DNA of 64,000 nt from Candidatus Latescibacterota bacterium (GTDB lineage Bacteria > Krumholzibacteriota > Krumholzibacteriia > WVZY01 > JAKEHA01), in assembly GCA_963707635.1 (NCBI GenBank), contig OY970173.1, positions 96,001-160,000 on the forward strand, in the 5' to 3' direction. Below are positions 18,319-32,088 of this stretch, in pieces. Both the position numbers and the translations under genes were made by a program. Each line of letters starts with the position of its first letter. The stretch's first letter is position 1. The notes below the pieces were generated by a model. The model was not told the DNA's origin. It did not search any database and worked only from the letters and a program-made list of their open reading frames with translations.

Positions 18319-19982
18319 TCAGTCGCGCGGCTCCTCGCGCCCGTCGATGTCGAGGCCGGCATCGCGCCAGCGACGTTCACCGATGGCGGTGCACAACACC
18401 AGGACGAAGATGGTCCCCACGATCAGAGCCATAGCCCCCTGGCGCAGGGGCTCGTCGGCTACCGACTGAATCCACGACCCCAGGTTCTGCCAGCAGAAGG
18501 CGGTGAACACCACCACCAGGTAGGTCGGCGTCACGTACTTCATGATGAACTTGTAGAAGACCGGGATCCGGATCTGCGCGCCCTCGTGCGCTTCCTTCCA
18601 TGCCCCGCTCGATGCCGAACACCCAGCTGAAGCAGATGATCTGCACCATCGCGAGCACGAAGATCAGGAACGTGCCGACCCAGTCGTCGATCGTCGACCA
18701 GAAGATGCCGTCCTTGCTGTAGTACATCACCAGGAACGAGCCGATGAGGCAGACGCCCACCATGAACGCCGTCGCCTTCTGCTTGCGTCCAGCCCAGCGA
18801 TTCCTTGAAGAACGCCAGCGCCGGGCTGATACATCGAGATCGAGCTGGTGATCGCTGCCAGGAACAGCATGAAGAACCAGATCGCGCCGATCGACGTTGC
18901 CGAACGCACCCATGTGCGCGAACACGACCGGCAGCGTGGTGAATCCGAGTCCGAAGGTGCCGCCCTGGACGGCGCCGATCATGTCGGCGGTGCCGAGGAA
19001 CACGAACGCGGCGGTGATGGTGATCAGCCCGCCGAAGCCGACCTCGAACAACTCGTTGGTGGCCGACGCGGTCAGCCCCGAGAGCACGACGTCGTCCTTC
19101 TTCTTGCAGGTAGGACGCGTAGTTGATGATCACGCCGAAGCCGACCGACAGGCTGAAGAAGATCTGACCGGCGGCCGCCAGCCAGGTCTGGGGATTGCCG
19201 AGCGCGTCGAAGCTGCGGGTTCCACATGTAGCGCGAGGCCGTTGATCACGTTCTGGTCCGGGTGCGCCGGGTCCGGCGTGCCCGAGGGTCAGCACACGCG
19301 CCCAGCACGATCAGCGCGCACACCGCCATCGCCGGCATCGCCCAGGACACGAACTTCTCGATGCCCTTCGACAGGCCGCGGTAGACGAGCCAGATGTTCA
19401 GGGCGAAGGTGATCGCCCAGAAGACGAAGGTTTCGATCGACCCGCCCGCGATGACCCCGTTCTCGGCTCGCGCCCGTGAAGTCGCTGTAGAACTGCGCCG
19501 GCGCGCGCCGTCTGGTCGGCGATCGGCGCGGTCGGCGTCGATGCCGATGCCGCCGGTGAGGTAGTGCCAGAAGTACCCGAGGCACCAGGCTTCGATGTAG
19601 GTGTAGTAGAAGGACACCGCCAGCGGAATCAGGACGCCGATGACGCCGAGGTAGCGCGCGATCGCGCCCGCCGCCGACGACGCCCAGGATCGAGGGCGCC
19701 GAGTGGAAGCCCTTGCGGCCGCCGTAGCGTCCCATCGTCCATTCGGCCCAGCCGATCGGGATGCCGAGAAGCAGGAGCGCGCAGAAGTACGGGATCATGA
19801 ACGCGCCGCCGCCGTTCTGCCGCCGCCTGGCCCGGGAAGCGCAGGAAGTTCCCGAGGCCGACGGCCGACCCGGCGACGGCGAGGATCACGCCGAGGCGCG
19901 TTCCCCATTCCTCGTGGCTGTGGGCCTGATGGTGCGCCTCGTGTGCGTCCGCCGCATGCTTGCTCGTGGTTTCTTTCGCCAT
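18319..19982 (-). CDS. Sodium-dependent transporter, NSS/SNF family (many frameshifts)
   Basis: [68 protein letters not shown] spread over successive frames. Confidence 0.88.
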
Positions 19983-20100
19983 TGTCGCCACCGTGGTTAA
20001 AAGAAACGATGGTCCCCGCGAGTCTTCGCGCGGATCCATTCATGCTGGGGGCAGATGGTATGGGCGGCCTCGCCTGCCGGTCAACCGCCAGTTTGCCGGC

Positions 20101-23630: not shown

Positions 23631-25772
<2,142 letters not shown>

Positions 25773-25788
25773 GGGGCGCGGCGTGGAT

Positions 25789-26283
25789 TCAGGCGGGGCG
25801 TTGCCGGTGGCGGTGGGTCTCGTAGGCGTTCGCGAGCCAGTCCGCGACTTTCCTGACTTCGACCTCCGTGCGCGCGTCGAAGGCGTCGATCTCGTGGCTG
25901 TCGATATCGATCTGCGCGAAGATGGTGTCGCCCTTGCGAATCAGCACCACCAGTTCCGAGCGCGTGGCGCTCGAGCAGGCGAGGTAGTTCGGTTCTTTCG
26001 ACACGTCGGGGACGTTCTTGTCGCGCCCTTCGGCGACCGCACTCCCGCACACGCCCTGACCGATCGAGATGAATACGTGGTCGGTGGGCGCGCCGATGAA
26101 GGGACCGAGTCGCAGCACGCGGTCGGGAAACAGCTCGTAGATGCCGGTCCAGTGGAAGTCCGGGTGGGCGTGGTGCAGGTACTCGACCGCGCTGGAAAGC
26201 ACGGCGTCGAAATTCACGCCGGAGGCGGCGAGTTGGTCGAGACGCTGGCAGATTCCTGCGCCGTCCAGGGTCGGCCCGGTCAT
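25789..26283 (-). CDS. GAF-domain protein, free methionine-(R)-sulfoxide reductase (MsrC/YebR)-like
   Basis: WTGIY, LGPF, GQGVCG, YLACS, SELVV, IDIDS. Confidence 0.8.
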   Translation of the reverse strand: MTGPTLDGAGICQRLDQLAASGVNFDAVLSSAVEYLHHAHPDFHWTGIYELFPDRVLRLGPFIGAPTDHVFISIGQGVCGSAVAEGRDKNVPDVSKEPNYLACSSATRSELVVLIRKGDTIFAQIDIDSHEIDAFDARTEVEVRKVADWLANAYETHRHRQRPA

Positions 26284-26367
26284 GCGCACCCTCCTAAGTC
26301 GCTGGGCGGGATGTGGTTCGACCCGCGCGGTGACGCCGCGCCGGGGTGACGCGCGGTCAATCCGCAA

Positions 26368-27198
26368 CTAGCATGCCAGACGTTTACCGATCGCGTAGTA
26401 CACGTTGCGGGGGTAGCTGATGCGCTCACCGAAGCGCTGCCCGAACACCTCGCGCGCGCGGGCGCGGTACCGCTCCCACGACGGGCCGTCCAGGAGTGCC
26501 AGGAGCGCCCGGCCGCTCGCGCATACCTCGCGGGCTTCGAGGTACTGCTCGACGGTCATGGCGAAGGTGAACGTGCGGGTTCCGGTGTCCACGGGCTCGA
26601 AGCCGGCTGCCGCCAGCACCGATTCCAGCCCTCCGGGCTTCGAAAGCATCGCTTCGCCGGGGAGCACGCACGCGGCGGCGGACACCGCCACCTCCGCGGA
26701 AACGAACTCGTGGACGACGCCGGTCCACGCGCGAGCGAGGTCGTCATCGGACGCCGCCCACGCGCTCAAGCCGATCCGGCCCGCCGGCCGGAGCACCCGC
26801 CCCATCTCGCGCACCGACGCGACGGCGTCGTCGACGTGCGTGAGCACGAAGGCCGAAAGCACCAGGTCGAAGCTCCCCGCGACGAACGGCAGGTACGGGA
26901 GCATGCCGACCACGGTGAGGTCGATCCCGCCCCGCTGCGCGGCTTCCAGCATCGGCGCCGACGGATCGACGGCGACCACGCGGCCCCCGGCGCCCACCGA
27001 GCGGGCGGCCGCCCGGGCCACCGCGCCGGTGCCGGCTCCCACGTCGAGCACGTGATCGCCGCGCGCCGGCGCCGCGATCGCCAGAAGCTCGCGGGCCGGC
27101 CGATCGAACATGAGCGGCGCGTTGAGCCGCTCGTATACAGCGGCCGCGTCGTCGTAGGAGCGAGCCCGGCGGATCAGACGCTCGTCGAAGGAGTTCAT
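26368..27198 (-). CDS. Class I SAM-dependent methyltransferase (UbiE-like)
   Basis: VLDVGAGTG, LPF..GSFDLV, RVLRPAG. Confidence 0.88.
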   Translation of the reverse strand: MNSFDERLIRRARSYDDAAAVYERLNAPLMFDRPARELLAIAAPARGDHVLDVGAGTGAVARAAARSVGAGGRVVAVDPSAPMLEAAQRGGIDLTVVGMLPYLPFVAGSFDLVLSAFVLTHVDDAVASVREMGRVLRPAGRIGLSAWAASDDDLARAWTGVVHEFVSAEVAVSAAACVLPGEAMLSKPGGLESVLAAAGFEPVDTGTRTFTFAMTVEQYLEAREVCASGRALLALLDGPSWERYRARAREVFGQRFGERISYPRNVYYAIGKRLAC

Positions 27199-27211
27199 CG
27201 TATGGCCGCGG

Positions 27212-27859
27212 TCAGTTGGATCGATCCGGCGAGAGCGCGGTGATCTCTTGCTCGAGCTCGGCGAGAGGCAGCGGCCCCGTGTGGCGCGCCACCGCGGTCC
27301 CGTCGGGAGCGACCAGGTAGAGGGTCGGCAGCACCTTCACCCGCAGCCGTTCCCACGCCGCGCTCTCGTTCGCGTCGACGACGATCGGATAGCCGACCGG
27401 GTGCTTCGCAAGGAACTTGCGCACCTTCTTTTCCCGGTCGCTTCCCTGATCCACGGATACGCCGATCACCACGACGTCGCCGCCGTATCGCTTCTGCAGC
27501 GCGTCGAGATCGGGCATCGACTCGACACACGGCTTGCACCACGTTGCCCAGAAGTCGACGAGCACGATCTTGCCGTGGAGCCGGGAGGTGCTGATCGTGT
27601 CCCCGGCGAGCGAAACAAGCGTCATCTCGGGAAACGGCCCGGGCACGAAGACGTACGCGTACGGATCCTGGTCGAATTCCGCGGCGCACTTCGCGGAACA
27701 GAAGGAGAGCTCGCGGCCGTCCAGCTGTCGGGTGGCAACGGCCTCTTCTTCCCGGGTCTCGCCCCCCAGCGCGCAGACCGCGCACAACGCTTTCCCGGCC
27801 CGCGCGCCGTCCGCGACCGCCGAGACGACTACGAGGAAAAGTGCGATCCACGCCTTCAT
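27212..27859 (-). CDS. Exported YHS/TRASH-like metal-binding domain fused to a TlpA-family thiol-disulfide oxidoreductase
   Basis: Start MKAWIALFL (signal peptide); CAVC...DGRELSFCSAKCAAEF..DP..Y; GKIVLVDFWATWCKPC...LPTLYLV. Confidence 0.85.
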   Translation of the reverse strand: MKAWIALFLVVVSAVADGARAGKALCAVCALGGETREEEAVATRQLDGRELSFCSAKCAAEFDQDPYAYVFVPGPFPEMTLVSLAGDTISTSRLHGKIVLVDFWATWCKPCVESMPDLDALQKRYGGDVVVIGVSVDQGSDREKKVRKFLAKHPVGYPIVVDANESAAWERLRVKVLPTLYLVAPDGTAVARHTGPLPLAELEQEITALSPDRSN

Positions 27860-28494
27860 CAGAACCCTCCCGCGATTGAAATCCCGAACGTGTCCATCCA
27901 CACCGCCATCAGGCTGACGCCTATCCTCTCGCCGAACCAGCTGGCGAGAACGTGCGAGCGCTGGCCGTCGTACATGTAGCGCGTGGAGAAGCCGCGCCAC
28001 ACGAACCATTCCGCTCCGAACGGATAGTTGAACCCGTCGTCCCACTCCGAGTAGTTGAGACTCCCATACACCGAAACCGGAATCCGGGGCGCCAGCTTCG
28101 ACACGGTCAGATAGTACGACTGCGTTCCCTCCGGCGACCCGATCCGGTCCGAGCTGGTCCCGAGGAAGGCCGCCGGCCGGCGCCCGGTTTCGGTCAGGAG
28201 GAACACGCTCGCGAGCGGGACGACTTCGCTGACCACCGGATTGTACTCGACCCCGATCTGGGCGCGCGGGTGAACCCGATAGTTCGCCGTCAGCCTCCAG
28301 CGCGGACGCTCCTCGTCCGTGTCGACGTAGCGCGCCGAGAACGACCAGGTGGTTTGGATTCCGCCCCCCCGGAGCGGCGCGCCTTCGCCGGGTCAGCCGC
28401 TTCAGGTGGGGGTCTGTGACGTCGGCGGCCCGGCGCTCGCGGGAACGCACCACGCCACGAGGAGGATGAGAGATGTCAGTTGAAGCAGGTGCAT
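27859..28494 (-). CDS. Putative UxxU double-selenocysteine outer-membrane beta-barrel protein (in-frame TGA at 28402-28404 and 28393-28395)
   Basis: One continuous frame: MHLLQLTSLILLVAWCVPASA-GPPTSQTPT-U-S-G-U-PGEGAPLRGGGIQTTWSFSARY...QIGVEYNP...GTSSDRIG...FGISIAGGF; hairpins directly 3' of the TGAs; stop overlaps the next ATG (TGATG). Confidence 0.7.
28361..28390 (-). other. Candidate bacterial SECIS hairpin(s)
   Basis: CGGCG-AAGGCG-CGCCG (28390-28375) starts 11 nt after the first TGA; CCGCTCC-GGG-GGGGCGG (28377-28361) has a G-rich loop 22 nt after the second TGA. Confidence 0.45.
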
Positions 28495-28511
28495 GAAACG
28501 ATTCGCCTCGC

Positions 28512-30821
28512 CTAGAGACGCCATGATACCCCGAAGAGCCAGTTGCGTCCCGCCATCCGGTAGCGCGCGACCTCTTCGTAGACCGTGTCGAGCAGGTTGC
28601 CCACCCTGGCGCTGACCGTCACGCGGGGAGTGAGGCTGAACTGCGCGTTGGCGTTGAGCACCGAGAACGCGTCCGGCGCCTGTCGGGGATAGAGAAATAC
28701 TTCGTCGATCGCGCTTCGATAGCGCGCGTCGCCGTGGAGCAGCCAGCGCTTCCACAGCACGTCGAGTGAGAGATTCGCGGAGTGTTTGGGCCGGTACGGG
28801 AGATAGTCGTCGGTCCGGCCGGGTGACTGGTCCCGCGCGTCGAGATACGCGTAGTTCGCTGAGGCCGTGAGTATTCCCAGGCGCGACGTGACCGTCGCCT
28901 CGATTCCCTGCATGAGCGCGTCGTTCAGGTTGCGCACCTGATAGACGGTCACGCCCAATGACTCGGCAATCTGTTCGAAGTAGATGAGGTCTTCGTAATC
29001 GTAGCGGTACGCGGCCACATCGAGGTCGAACGCCGGCGCGGGATTCCAGCGCGCGCCCACCTCCGCCGAGGCGACGATGTGTTCGGCGCCGAGGTCCGGG
29101 TTGGGCACGAGGTCGATGCCGCCGCCGATCTCGCGCTCCTGGAAGAGCTCCGCGATCGTGGGCGCCCGGAACGCCTGTCCGAACAACGCGCGCAGCGCCA
29201 GCTCCGGCCGGACCGTCCACACCAGCCCCAGCTTCGGGCTCACCTGATCGAGCGTGCGGACCCCGACCAGATGATTCCAGTCGTAGCGGGCACCGATGGT
29301 GGCGGCGAGGCTGCGGACGATGGTGATGTCGTCCTGCACGAACAGCGCGTAGTTGTTGATCTGGTGGTCTCCGTAGAGCGTCGTGTCCGGCGACGACAGC
29401 ACGTAGTCGAGCTGAAAATCCCCCCCCGCGACCAGGTGGTGCCGCTCGCCCCAGCGGAGATCACCCTGGCTGATCGCCCCGATTTTGTCCCCCAGGATCT
29501 CGGTGGCGAAACCGAAGGGCTCGTTGCCGGGCAGCTCGCGATCGGGGTCGTTCGGGTTGAAGGTCGAACGCTGCTCGTGGTGGAAGTAATACGCGCGGGT
29601 GGAGTAGCGGGTCCGTTCGCTGAAGCCCGAATAGTGCAGGTCGGCGCTGCCGTAGTCCTTGTGCTGGCGGTCGTCGGTGAAGGAATCGCGCACCTGCAGG
29701 GGTTCCGCCGCGCTCAACCAGGCGTGCGGATAGTCGTTCTCCGCGCGGCCGCCGCCCAGCGTCAGCTCGAGCTTTCGATGCGAATCGACGTCGCAGACGA
29801 TCTTGCCGAACAGGTCGTAGAACGCGTAGGCGGTGTTCTCGCTGAAGCCGTCCGATCCCTTCCAGCTCGCGCTCACCAGATAGCGCAGGTCGGGCGCGAA
29901 CGCGATCGGACCGGAGACGTCCGCGGTGACCTCGCCCTGCAGCGGCGTTTCGTCGGTGTAGCTGACCGGACTCTTTTCGAAAAACCCCAGCTTGAAGTCG
30001 AGCCTGCCGACCAGCGAGTCGCTGGGCCGGCGGGTGATCACGTTGACGACGCCGCCCATCGCCGTCGAGCCGTAGAGGCTCGAGAACGCTCCTTTCACGA
30101 TCTCGACGCGATCGATGAACTGCGTCGGGACCAGGCTCCAGAAGGCGCCGCCGGTGTCCGAAGTCAGCGCCGGGCGTCCGTCGATGAGCAGCAGCACGCG
30201 ATTCCCGACGCCGCCGCCCGCAATGTCGGAACTGCCCCGAATCTGGATCGACTGCACGGAGATGCCGGTGGTCCGAAAGGCGTTGAGGCCGGAAACGGCT
30301 TCGATCGATTGATCGAACGTGATCGGCGCGCGGCGCGCAATGTCGTCCTGGTCGACCACCTCCACGCTGGCGGGCGCCATGCGCGCGGTCTGCTCGACGC
30401 GCGTGGCGGTCACGATCACCGGGTCGGTCGTGATCGCGGACGCCTCGAGCGCAATGTCGACGCGAGTGGTGTCGCCGGCGTCCACCCGCACGCCCGGCCG
30501 GGAGAACGCGGCGTAGCCGATGCGAGAGATGGTCAGACGGTACACCCCGGGGGGCAGCTCACGTATCACGTAGTGGCCGCGCGTGTCGGAGGTCGCGCCG
30601 CGTCTGGTCGAATCGATCCGGACGGTGGAGAAGCTCAACCCGGCCCCGGTCGCCGCGTCGGTGACGCGTCCCACGATCACTCCCAACGAAGCGGGCGACG
30701 GGCGGGTTGCGCCCGCCTGGGGGAACGCGCGCGGCGCGCCGAGGCCCAGGCCCGTGAGCACGCATGCAGCTCCGGCCACAGCCCGGACTCGGCCGCCGAT
30801 GCGATCGGTCGCGGCGCGCAT
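28512..30821 (-). CDS. TonB-dependent receptor with N-terminal carboxypeptidase-regulatory-like domain
   Basis: GRVTDAATG, VIVTATR, plug IDRVEIVKGAFSSLYGSTAMGGVVNVIT, FRAPTIAEL, NLLD..Y...GRNWLFGVSWRL. Confidence 0.92.
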   Translation of the reverse strand: MRAATDRIGGRVRAVAGAACVLTGLGLGAPRAFPQAGATRPSPASLGVIVGRVTDAATGAGLSFSTVRIDSTRRGATSDTRGHYVIRELPPGVYRLTISRIGYAAFSRPGVRVDAGDTTRVDIALEASAITTDPVIVTATRVEQTARMAPASVEVVDQDDIARRAPITFDQSIEAVSGLNAFRTTGISVQSIQIRGSSDIAGGGVGNRVLLLIDGRPALTSDTGGAFWSLVPTQFIDRVEIVKGAFSSLYGSTAMGGVVNVITRRPSDSLVGRLDFKLGFFEKSPVSYTDETPLQGEVTADVSGPIAFAPDLRYLVSASWKGSDGFSENTAYAFYDLFGKIVCDVDSHRKLELTLGGGRAENDYPHAWLSAAEPLQVRDSFTDDRQHKDYGSADLHYSGFSERTRYSTRAYYFHHEQRSTFNPNDPDRELPGNEPFGFATEILGDKIGAISQGDLRWGERHHLVAGGDFQLDYVLSSPDTTLYGDHQINNYALFVQDDITIVRSLAATIGARYDWNHLVGVRTLDQVSPKLGLVWTVRPELALRALFGQAFRAPTIAELFQEREIGGGIDLVPNPDLGAEHIVASAEVGARWNPAPAFDLDVAAYRYDYEDLIYFEQIAESLGVTVYQVRNLNDALMQGIEATVTSRLGILTASANYAYLDARDQSPGRTDDYLPYRPKHSANLSLDVLWKRWLLHGDARYRSAIDEVFLYPRQAPDAFSVLNANAQFSLTPRVTVSARVGNLLDTVYEEVARYRMAGRNWLFGVSWRL

Positions 30822-30828
30822 GCGAGGA

Positions 30829-31329
30829 CTACGGCGCCAGGGCGAGATCGGCGACGAAGTCCAACCCACTGCGGTGGATATTCGACCCCGCCAGATTCAG
30901 CGAGGTGGGGCCAGGGGCCTGCGGCGCGATCTTGCTGCCGTTCCAGGCGACTCCCACGCTGTCCACAAAGGTCCAGTACATCCCCAGCAGGGTGGCGCTG
31001 CCCGGAACGGACGGGTTGCGCCAGCTCACGTAAATCGCGGCGTAGCTGCCTTCCTCGAGGCCGGTCAGGCTGAAGGTGTACTCGCTCACGCCGGGCGCGA
31101 TGGGGTTGGTGTAACCATCCGGCGGACCATCGGGCACGAGGTCGGCCGGCAGGACGGAGTATATCGACACCTGGACATCGCCCGTCGCGGGCCAGGAACC
31201 CGTGTTGACGAACGTCACCTTGCCCTCGACGCTGGCGGGGCCGGCAGGTTGCGCGGGGTTGTCGTCGCCACACGAGCTGATCATCGTCGCCACGCCCATC
31301 ATCGCCAGGAACAAGAACATGCGTCTCAT
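30829..31329 (-). CDS. Lipoprotein of unknown function, first gene of the TonB receptor operon
   Basis: Lipobox ISSC; 7 nt upstream of the TonB receptor start. Confidence 0.75.
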   Translation of the reverse strand: MRRMFLFLAMMGVATMISSCGDDNPAQPAGPASVEGKVTFVNTGSWPATGDVQVSIYSVLPADLVPDGPPDGYTNPIAPGVSEYTFSLTGLEEGSYAAIYVSWRNPSVPGSATLLGMYWTFVDSVGVAWNGSKIAPQAPGPTSLNLAGSNIHRSGLDFVADLALAP

Positions 31330-31452
31330 GGAGTTTCCCCGTGTTAAGGTGGAAGTGTTCAATTGTCTGCGCGAACCGCCAGAAAAGACATTGAACTCTG
31401 GGTCACGATCGCATAGGTTTAGTCAGGTTTGCCAAATAAAGCAGAGAGCCCC

Positions 31453-32088
31453 ATGTTTCGTCAAGGTACCACTGCCGAAGAGACCCGCTGGCTGACCCTA
31501 ACGGAAGCGGCGGAGGCCCTCCGGGTGCATCCGACCACGCTCCGCCGCTGGTCCGATTCGGGTCAGATCCCCGTGTTCTTGACCCCCGGCGGCCACCGGC
31601 GGTTCGCCGCGTCGGACGTCAAGCACATGTCGGTGCGCCGGCATGCCGTGCGGCGGGTCGGCCCGGTCGAACGGATCTGGGCCGACCAGGCGCTTACACT
31701 GGCCCGAAAGCAGCTCGCCAATCAGGAGCAGGAGCGCTGGCTCAAGCGGCACGACGGTCCCGCGCGGGATCGCAACCGGCAGATGGGCCATCAGCTCATG
31801 GCCCTCATCCTCGAGTACGTGACCGGCGAGAACGACGACGAGCGCCCGGTGCGACAGGCGCGCTCCATCGGTGTCCAGTACGGCCACGCGTCGCGCGAGC
31901 TGGGCCTGCCGCTCACCGACGCCCTCCAGGCCGCGATGTTTTTCCGCGACACGCTCACGACCTCGGCGGTCGCGCTGCCCGGCAACGTGCGCATCCCGAT
32001 CGGATCGCAGGTCCAGCTGGTGACGCGCATCAGCCGCATCGTCAACGAAGTCCAATTGGGTGTGGCGGACGCGTACGCGCCGTCGTAG
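31453..32088 (+). CDS. Xis/MerR-like HTH (HTH_17) regulator with an all-helical C-terminal sensor-like domain
   Basis: WLTLTEAAEALRVHPTTLRRWSDSGQI...TPGGHRRF; divergent from the TonB receptor operon. Confidence 0.8.
   Translation: MFRQGTTAEETRWLTLTEAAEALRVHPTTLRRWSDSGQIPVFLTPGGHRRFAASDVKHMSVRRHAVRRVGPVERIWADQALTLARKQLANQEQERWLKRHDGPARDRNRQMGHQLMALILEYVTGENDDERPVRQARSIGVQYGHASRELGLPLTDALQAAMFFRDTLTTSAVALPGNVRIPIGSQVQLVTRISRIVNEVQLGVADAYAPS

Follow-up and report, generated by a model that had tools for sequence, protein, structure and literature searches.

Two in-frame UGA codons, very likely read as selenocysteine, in the plug of a predicted outer-membrane beta-barrel with a YHS/TRASH-TlpA partner gene

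The DNA analysed here (the window) is a stretch of 64,000 nucleotides from a Candidatus Latescibacterota bacterium (contig OY970173.1, positions 96,001 to 160,000). Its source genome, G000, is a single contig of 3.2 Mb that is 96% complete, and its nearest named relatives, judged by the protein described below, are Krumholzibacteriia. On the minus strand lie two overlapping genes, the first of which is interrupted by two apparent stops that very likely code for selenocysteine (Sec), as judged by comparison of related sequences. This gene is present in single copy, with one match in a six-frame search of G000. The features of the locus are as follows:

27859..28494, minus strand: whole barrel gene, 211 aa with both UGAs taken as Sec
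28432..28494, minus strand: signal peptide, residues 1-21, recognised from its sequence and a hydrophobic stretch conserved across loci
28348..28431, minus strand: N-terminal arm, residues 22-49, with the motif P-T-U-S-G-U-P-G-E-G, predicted to plug the barrel lumen as an ordered segment
28402..28404, minus strand: UGA 1, putative Sec31; invariant TGA (54 of 54 aligned loci), replaced by Cys in CxxC and CxxU relatives
28393..28395, minus strand: UGA 2, putative Sec34; TGA in 54 of 54 aligned loci, Cys in CxxC relatives
28361..28377, minus strand: predicted bacterial SECIS, a 7-bp stem with a 3-nt, G-first loop, from covariation, RNAalifold and its loss in Cys loci
27862..28347, minus strand: predicted 12-stranded outer-membrane beta-barrel, residues 50-211, from models, fold searches and conservation
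27212..27859, minus strand: partner gene, 215 aa, with a signal peptide and YHS/TRASH-like and TlpA-like domains, from domain matches and invariant Cys
28512..30869, minus strand: TonB-dependent receptor gene, 17 nt upstream of the barrel gene, a neighbour only in close relatives

A sequence-only reading of this DNA had described one frame that starts at ATG 28494, passes through ACC TGA AGC GGC TGA CCC and continues for about 177 codons to a C-terminal Phe, and every part of this description was found. From its start, the frame specifies a 21-residue signal peptide, probably cleaved after A-S-A to judge from its residues, a Pro/Thr linker, a TGA at codon 31 (28404-28402), Ser-Gly, a second TGA at codon 34 (28395-28393), and then the barrel codons. 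Exactly 177 sense codons follow the second TGA, the last being Phe211, before the terminal TGA at 27861-27859. A promoter scan found no promoter.

An alternative interpretation would be that the two UGAs are stops, Trp codons or sequence errors, and that the barrel starts downstream of them. This is how the databases treat the family: of 885 matches in protein databases almost all are truncated forms, and nearly all members are annotated from internal starts, just as had been predicted for standard gene callers. Some called proteins have W at the positions (P0063, P0237, P0126), and in one locus (L102:4016) a TAA replaces the first TGA with the remainder intact, which could be a sequencing error or a recent pseudogene. 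The genomic data point the other way. In a scan of genome contigs, TGA-x-x-TGA occurred in frame with the barrel in 54 of 57 loci, all 54 continuing with Pro-Gly-Glu-Gly, and in 79 of 80 metagenome loci (the best 80 of 196 relatives), L102 being the exception. The three genome loci without an intact motif comprise one with a frameshift after the motif (L052), one cut by the contig start (L057) and one decayed, arm-less copy (L062). Among 61 genomes around G000 there were 12 matches, G000 included, and all 12 carried two in-frame TGAs; in the phylum of G044 (Armatimonadota according to the title of L051), 41 of 251 genomes matched, mostly with two TGAs. Across the 54 aligned loci the flanking codons differ synonymously and both TGAs are invariant. 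A 264-nt contig from a public run spans 28320-28583 and has, among the differences listed, none at the TGAs, a weak check at a depth of about 2 and with 3 other letters. Since the same two TGAs recur across genome loci, metagenome loci and the neighbours of G000, they are not an assembly error, and since more of the long stop-free stretches in G000 end in TGA than in any other stop (1347 of 2546), the genome does not use a Trp code.

A further line of evidence comes from the signal peptide. In 119 of 124 loci a hydrophobic stretch of this type precedes the first TGA in the same frame; the other two frames have one in 14 of 248 cases, and the first 40 residues past the second TGA in none of the 124 (10 loci with less than 200 nt upstream were excluded). 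The earlier claims that the frame is kept across both TGAs, rather than being an assembly artefact, and that the barrel part has no signal peptide of its own were both borne out. Assembly error, a real stop and TGA as Trp are rejected on the basis of the conserved TGAs, the upstream signal stretch and the stop usage; with the Cys residues aligned to both positions, and the hairpin that disappears where Cys takes the place of TGA (see below), a barrel starting downstream of stops, Trp codons or errors retains next to no probability.

Past the two UGAs lies a hairpin of 7 bp (28377-28361) with the loop GGG, which starts 22 nt past UGA 2 and 31 nt past UGA 1. The bacterial SECIS model, as outlined in the accessible text of PMC13188914, has a loop of 3-9 nt with G in the two leading positions, a stem of 4-16 bp, a distance of 16-37 nt from the UGA and an energy of at most -7.5 kcal/mol. 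In stem, loop, both distances and energy (-10.6 kcal/mol) the hairpin of the window lies within these bounds. In 55 sequences, the related ones among them not being independent, 99.5% of cells are paired and five of the seven pairs show compensatory changes, versus 30-69% pairing in slid controls, and RNAalifold recovers the same helix unprompted. When divergent loci were included there were 37 distinct 17-mers at the hairpin offset, with G first in the loop in 36. The distinct in-frame hairpins numbered 36, of which 31 fold at -5 kcal/mol or better and 21 reach -7.5 as bare 17-mers, while 23 are equalled by no more than 5% of synonymous recodings. Three weak cases (the L152 and L171-L173 types) have the hairpin in a shifted register. 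In Cys-form loci the hairpin is lost in 6 of 6, the sequence folding at 0 to -2.6 kcal/mol. Folding of single sequences is uninformative, the SECIS region of the window scoring no better than shuffles (z +0.4 to +1.4), and the evidence for a SECIS is comparative; a covarying hairpin was found where one had been expected, although the window's own minimum-energy folds do not show it. An Rfam search of 25500-31700 gave no match. RNAalifold also suggested a second small hairpin for UGA 1, which was rejected as it has no compensatory pair and the base correlation is unclear. A correlation links the third bases of the Pro35 and Glu37 codons at 28384-28390 (minus strand) and in homologs, with A accompanying non-C in 34 of 36 cases and G accompanying C in 62 of 87, and half of the non-C cases are unpaired.

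Genes for Sec insertion are present in G000, which encodes tRNA-Sec, selA, selB and selD, the last itself with an in-frame TGA. Among host genomes of homologs, many of them draft assemblies, selB scored above cut-off in 45 of the 50 submitted (from 57 loci). A profile search of 1.84 billion representatives recovered full-length relatives with C-A-G-C at the motif position, and homologs have TGA or Cys at both sites. Relatives with CxxC include P0141, P0149, P0167, P0140 and L183-L188, and those with CxxU are L190-L193, found among genome loci together with further UxxU forms. Across 192 locus records (duplicates included) there are 175 UxxU, 4 CxxU and 6 CxxC forms, one seventh CxxC row being left out as a partner gene. 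In a tree built from 49 of the 102 aligned rows, the CxxC barrels account for one side of a branch with good support. The relation of the Cys form to the Sec machinery is mixed, with no selA or selB match in G335 and G351 and both in G200 (the genomes may be incomplete), and three genomes (G135, G230, G302) have Sec and Cys copies of the barrel side by side. Conservation, the covarying hairpin, Sec/Cys exchange and the machinery all support the read-through proposed at the outset, and it is close to certain, from this comparative evidence, that Sec is inserted at both UGAs by means of one hairpin lying downstream.

The family also shows duplication and decay. A distant paralog clade (L191-L194, from G044, G275, G327 and G158) has arms reading C-P-L-U or U-P-L-U, and some genomes have two or three paralogs. 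An Eisenbacteria contig carries tandem duplicate barrel genes (L045:3777 and 4965), and the L047 contig has a second, decayed copy (L062). Eight distant relatives (P0138, P0170, P0217, P0223, P0238, P0251, P0268 and P0269) have no Cys pair in the called protein; these could have hidden UGAs or be true arm-less forms.

The sequence-only reading had taken the protein for a beta-barrel, and modelling with U replaced by Cys gave a high-confidence, 12-stranded prediction. AlphaFold with 54 alignment rows produced a 12-stranded barrel with an uncertain arm; with 102 rows the pLDDT was 92.3 and the arm, at 81-92, formed beta-bridges. Nine residues of the barrel are invariant (R55, R67, G81, D116, R117, G160, D176, G177 and H181), R63 is nearly so, and the acids E37, E83, D116 and D176 are invariant or near-invariant. 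A signal peptide, an even number of amphipathic strands and a C-terminal aromatic residue are features of outer-membrane barrels; the protein has the first, 12 strands in the model and a C-terminal Phe, and F211 is conserved in 88% of the 102 rows. We have high confidence in the prediction that it is exported and takes up a plugged-barrel fold, in which the model shows the arm as ordered and filling the lumen rather than hanging free as a tail. Isolated beta-bridges at model positions 5-6, 19-20, 11 and 95 suggest that the tip of an arm hairpin, bearing the Sec pair, touches the invariant D116-R117, in a loop that the usual barrel topology puts on the outer side.

Fold searches gave three virtually tied matches: the COG4313 channel Pput2725 (4rl8; Z 16.3, rmsd 2.6, 165 residues aligned), FapF (5o65; Z 16.1, rmsd 2.5, 168 aligned) and KdgM (Z 16.0, rmsd 2.4, 151 aligned). 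The first two also have 12 strands and an N-terminal segment in the lumen, but their identity to the Sec barrel is 8-18%, there is no match at the sequence level, and the Sec barrel is about 80 residues shorter; a likeness in fold shows no function. The N-terminus of 4rl8 occludes its lumen, according to the available text of PMC4493636, and the modelled arm of the Sec barrel aligns onto it. The closest folds, plugged barrels that take hydrophobic or peptide cargo, and the existence of CxxC forms could be used to argue that the Se-Se bond has a structural role, or acts as a redox gate, and locks the plug of a pore for some unrelated solute, with TlpA only opening or repairing it. That the costly double Sec has been kept in 175 records against 6 with CxxC (duplicates included) speaks against this, and the linkage to YHS domains would be left unaccounted for, making it a quite improbable explanation. 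The lumen suggests another possibility, that of an oxyanion or metalloid channel (for selenite, arsenite or thiosulfate), where the invariant R55, R67 and R117 and the near-invariant R63 would select the anion and the Sec pair would capture or reduce it. The closeness of the fold to KdgM and to NanC (Z 13.5), both acidic-sugar porins, fits such a channel, as do the ArsR-family neighbours described below. Against it, the four acids named above can pair with the Arg residues and so pin the plug, and an untargeted look at the recurrent neighbours showed no selenium, arsenic or sulfur gene family; we consider an anion channel unlikely.

The partner gene follows the barrel gene immediately, its ATG overlapping the barrel stop (TGATG). 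Its protein has four YHS/TRASH-like Cys (C26, C29, C54 and C58) and a TlpA-like C108-x-x-C111. The AhpC-TSA/Redoxin match is above the Pfam cut-off; the YHS match in the window is below it (19 versus 30.3 bits) and above it in L170, L182 and L197. All six Cys are invariant in 76 aligned rows, which were picked for having the four YHS Cys. At loci with 400 nt of room, TlpA lies directly downstream in 93 of 119 (32 of 52 genome and 61 of 67 metagenome loci), and both domains do so in 26 of 52 and 59 of 67, respectively. All 10 loci of G000 and its relatives have a TlpA close by, as do 15 of the 30 from Armatimonadota. An adjacent partner is absent from 20 of 52 genome loci, including all 10 of Poribacteria. 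In seven loci (L055, L056, L170, L172, L174, L178 and L181), falling in three places of the tree, YHS is fused to the Sec barrel itself. Cys barrels can be fused to three tandem YHS copies, and TlpA still follows in 4 of 4 of these. Seven longer proteins included no full YHS-TlpA-barrel fusion, in a search to which a TGA-split fusion is invisible. Taken together, the barrel and YHS/TRASH-TlpA genes very probably form a two-gene unit whose products are partners. In one locus (L057:487-1194) the TlpA site of the partner reads W-U-A-P-U, giving a second double-Sec protein beside the barrel.

The partner also opens the way to a trans-outer-membrane redox relay, in which electrons would pass from TlpA to the Sec pair and on to a substrate outside or within the pore (disulfides, polysulfide or peroxide), the YHS domain being a structural zinc site. 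The WCxxC of TlpA is invariant, and once U-x-x-U; the four YHS Cys could hold one structural Zn; and most known bacterial selenoproteins are oxidoreductases, at least in the accessible text of PMC13188914. A structural site fits poorly with YHS domains that shift between barrel and TlpA and occur in up to three copies, which resembles cargo handling, and a relay leaves the ArsR, P1B ATPase and metallothionein-like neighbours unaccounted for. It is a credible alternative of rather low probability.

Those neighbours form a small minority of loci, nearly all of them Armatimonadota, and in the window there is no metal-related neighbour except YHS. A Pfam scan of 66 hand-picked neighbours placed ArsR-type regulators in 6 locus records (L175 and L195 being near copies), and among 192 records 5 had P1B ATPases and 9 had Cys-rich, metallothionein-like peptides. 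One run of genes (L193) combines three YHS domains, a CxxU barrel and an ATPase with HMA, CPC, YN and MxxSS motifs, which we take to be a copper(I) signature. The metallothionein-like ORFs, of 35-67 aa, lie near the barrel in L158, L161, L164, L166, L167, L169, L187, L188 and L196, and those checked against Pfam had no match. The TonB-dependent receptor was rejected as a fixed part of the unit: of the 108 loci with at least 800 nt upstream, 10 have one in the 3 kb on that side, in close relatives only, and it probably stands outside the conserved unit. Among close relatives (8-11 loci), neighbours corresponding to 25789-27198 and 30829-32088 of the window keep their places around the unit; one is a methyltransferase, and the others are presumably a GAF-like protein, a lipoprotein-like ORF and a helix-turn-helix regulator. 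Elsewhere in the window (18319-20039, minus strand) a membrane transporter gene, which we presume to be of the sodium-dependent NSS type, is broken over several frames, a pattern that fits assembly indel errors.

The YHS fusions, the ArsR, P1B and metallothionein-like context and the literature on copper lead us to favour a soft-metal pore over the other explanations. TRASH/YHS domains are found in copper systems, including archaeal ones (PMC5328820), TlpA reduces Cys pairs ahead of copper loading, and the outer-membrane protein OprC binds Cu(I) through CxxxM-HxM (both PMC7558416), as far as the available text of these papers goes. In the proposed mechanism, the gene would specify an exported selenoprotein, a pore of 12 strands in the outer membrane whose plug is an arm bearing Sec-x-x-Sec, both UGAs being decoded as Sec by means of one downstream hairpin. 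The arm would run up the lumen and bring the Sec pair near the invariant D116-R117 loop. The TlpA domain of the partner may turn the Se-Se bond into two selenolates by reduction, in transit across the periplasm or upon movement of the plug, and the four-Cys YHS/TRASH domain may take or give the metal. With the help of YHS-TlpA, the pore would then bind and pass a soft metal ion, most likely copper, in uptake or in export. Against this mechanism stand the sparse metal context, almost confined to one phylum, the many loci that have no adjacent partner and the sub-threshold YHS match of the window. The Arg-rich lumen, with three invariant Arg and a near-invariant fourth, suits anions too; a Sec pair near the outer mouth, if it sits there, would be out of reach of a periplasmic TlpA unless the plug moves; and the called proteins of several distant representatives lack a Cys pair. 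On balance, a redox-primed soft-metal (probably copper) pore has about an even prospect, and the same holds for the cargo being a soft metal; the chemistry assigned to the partner is conjectural. More tentative, and clearly short of even, is the fuller picture of a stand-alone, TonB-independent outer-membrane metal pore in which the plug would be a diselenide switch, reduced by a periplasmic YHS-TlpA protein that also collects the metal, taken jointly with a single SECIS hairpin that would direct two UGAs spaced by 9 nt, its loop lying 31 nt from one and 22 nt from the other.

The barrel was compared with known families and, as the sequence-only reading had supposed, appears to belong to none described so far. 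NCBIfam returned 0 families at E 0.1 for the barrel of the window, and among 30 diverse members only fused YHS domains matched, weakly (NF041384). Pfam gave none at cut-off, with OMP_b-brl sub-threshold at E 0.08, and a PDB sequence search found nothing better than E 0.47. The ESM Atlas has unnamed clusters, one with YjbH on 14% of its members, which is a lead only. SelL is a bacterial UxxU selenoprotein. The barrel family is absent from Table 1 of a 2026 catalogue of 119 selenoprotein families (PMC13188914), and a search of the open literature, including the accessible parts of the deep-Sep (PMC12013277) and GOS (PMC2398784) studies, and with subscription journals and supplements outside its scope, did not find it described. 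The outer-membrane entries of the catalogue table are also Sec-predicted barrels: TonB-dependent receptors (NF049944 PUIUD, NF049945 FCYXU, NF049946 CU and NF049947 PCPU), which are large (profiles of about 685 positions) compared to this 190-residue, 12-stranded barrel with its dedicated YHS-TlpA partner, and the GSU2204 or MtrB-PioB type (NF041027), which, unlike the barrel here, is cytochrome-associated. Sec residues three apart also occur there, in a Prx-like oxidoreductase (PF00578), a metal-binding protein (NF041115) and an FmdB-family regulator (TIGR02605), but these UxxU entries are soluble, thioredoxin-fold or small metal-binding proteins, and none listed is a membrane barrel. A double-Sec outer-membrane barrel family with a reductase partner is thus apparently undescribed.

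Among copper systems, the outer-membrane proteins OprC/NosA and PcoB/CopB are candidates for working in a similar way, the Cys/Met/His motif of OprC being its Cu(I) site (PMC7558416). OprC is, however, a TonB-dependent receptor, and in that paper's accessible text neither OprC nor PcoB is described with Sec or a YHS-TlpA partner. The fold of PcoB is more distant (Z 9.1, rmsd 4.4, 151 aligned, 6% identity), and the Sec barrel has no Pfam CopB match. The partner has a counterpart in the TlpA of Bradyrhizobium, a thioredoxin-like protein outside the cytoplasm that acts with ScoI and CoxB and reduces a Cys pair before copper loading (PMC7558416). That TlpA is membrane-bound and serves cytochrome oxidase assembly, whereas the partner here carries a YHS/TRASH domain behind a signal peptide that looks cleavable, and its score is far under the TlpA cut-off (67 versus 230 bits).

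The named hosts of the family span Krumholzibacteriota, Latescibacterota, Eisenbacteria, Poribacteria, Acidobacteriota, KSB1, Calditrichota, Armatimonadota and a few Proteobacteria, so this work adds a widespread selenoprotein family that the databases hold almost only in truncated form. Sec-x-x-Sec, so far listed in soluble proteins, would now be placed in a small barrel of the outer membrane, as part of its plug, and alongside a reductase partner dedicated to that barrel. The natural series of UxxU, CxxU and CxxC forms may help to show what selenium adds over sulfur in an oxidising envelope, and the pairing of two neighbouring UGAs with a single covarying hairpin offers a clean way to test the reach of a bacterial SECIS. 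If the diselenide-switch pore is true, it would give selenium a direct role at the cell surface.
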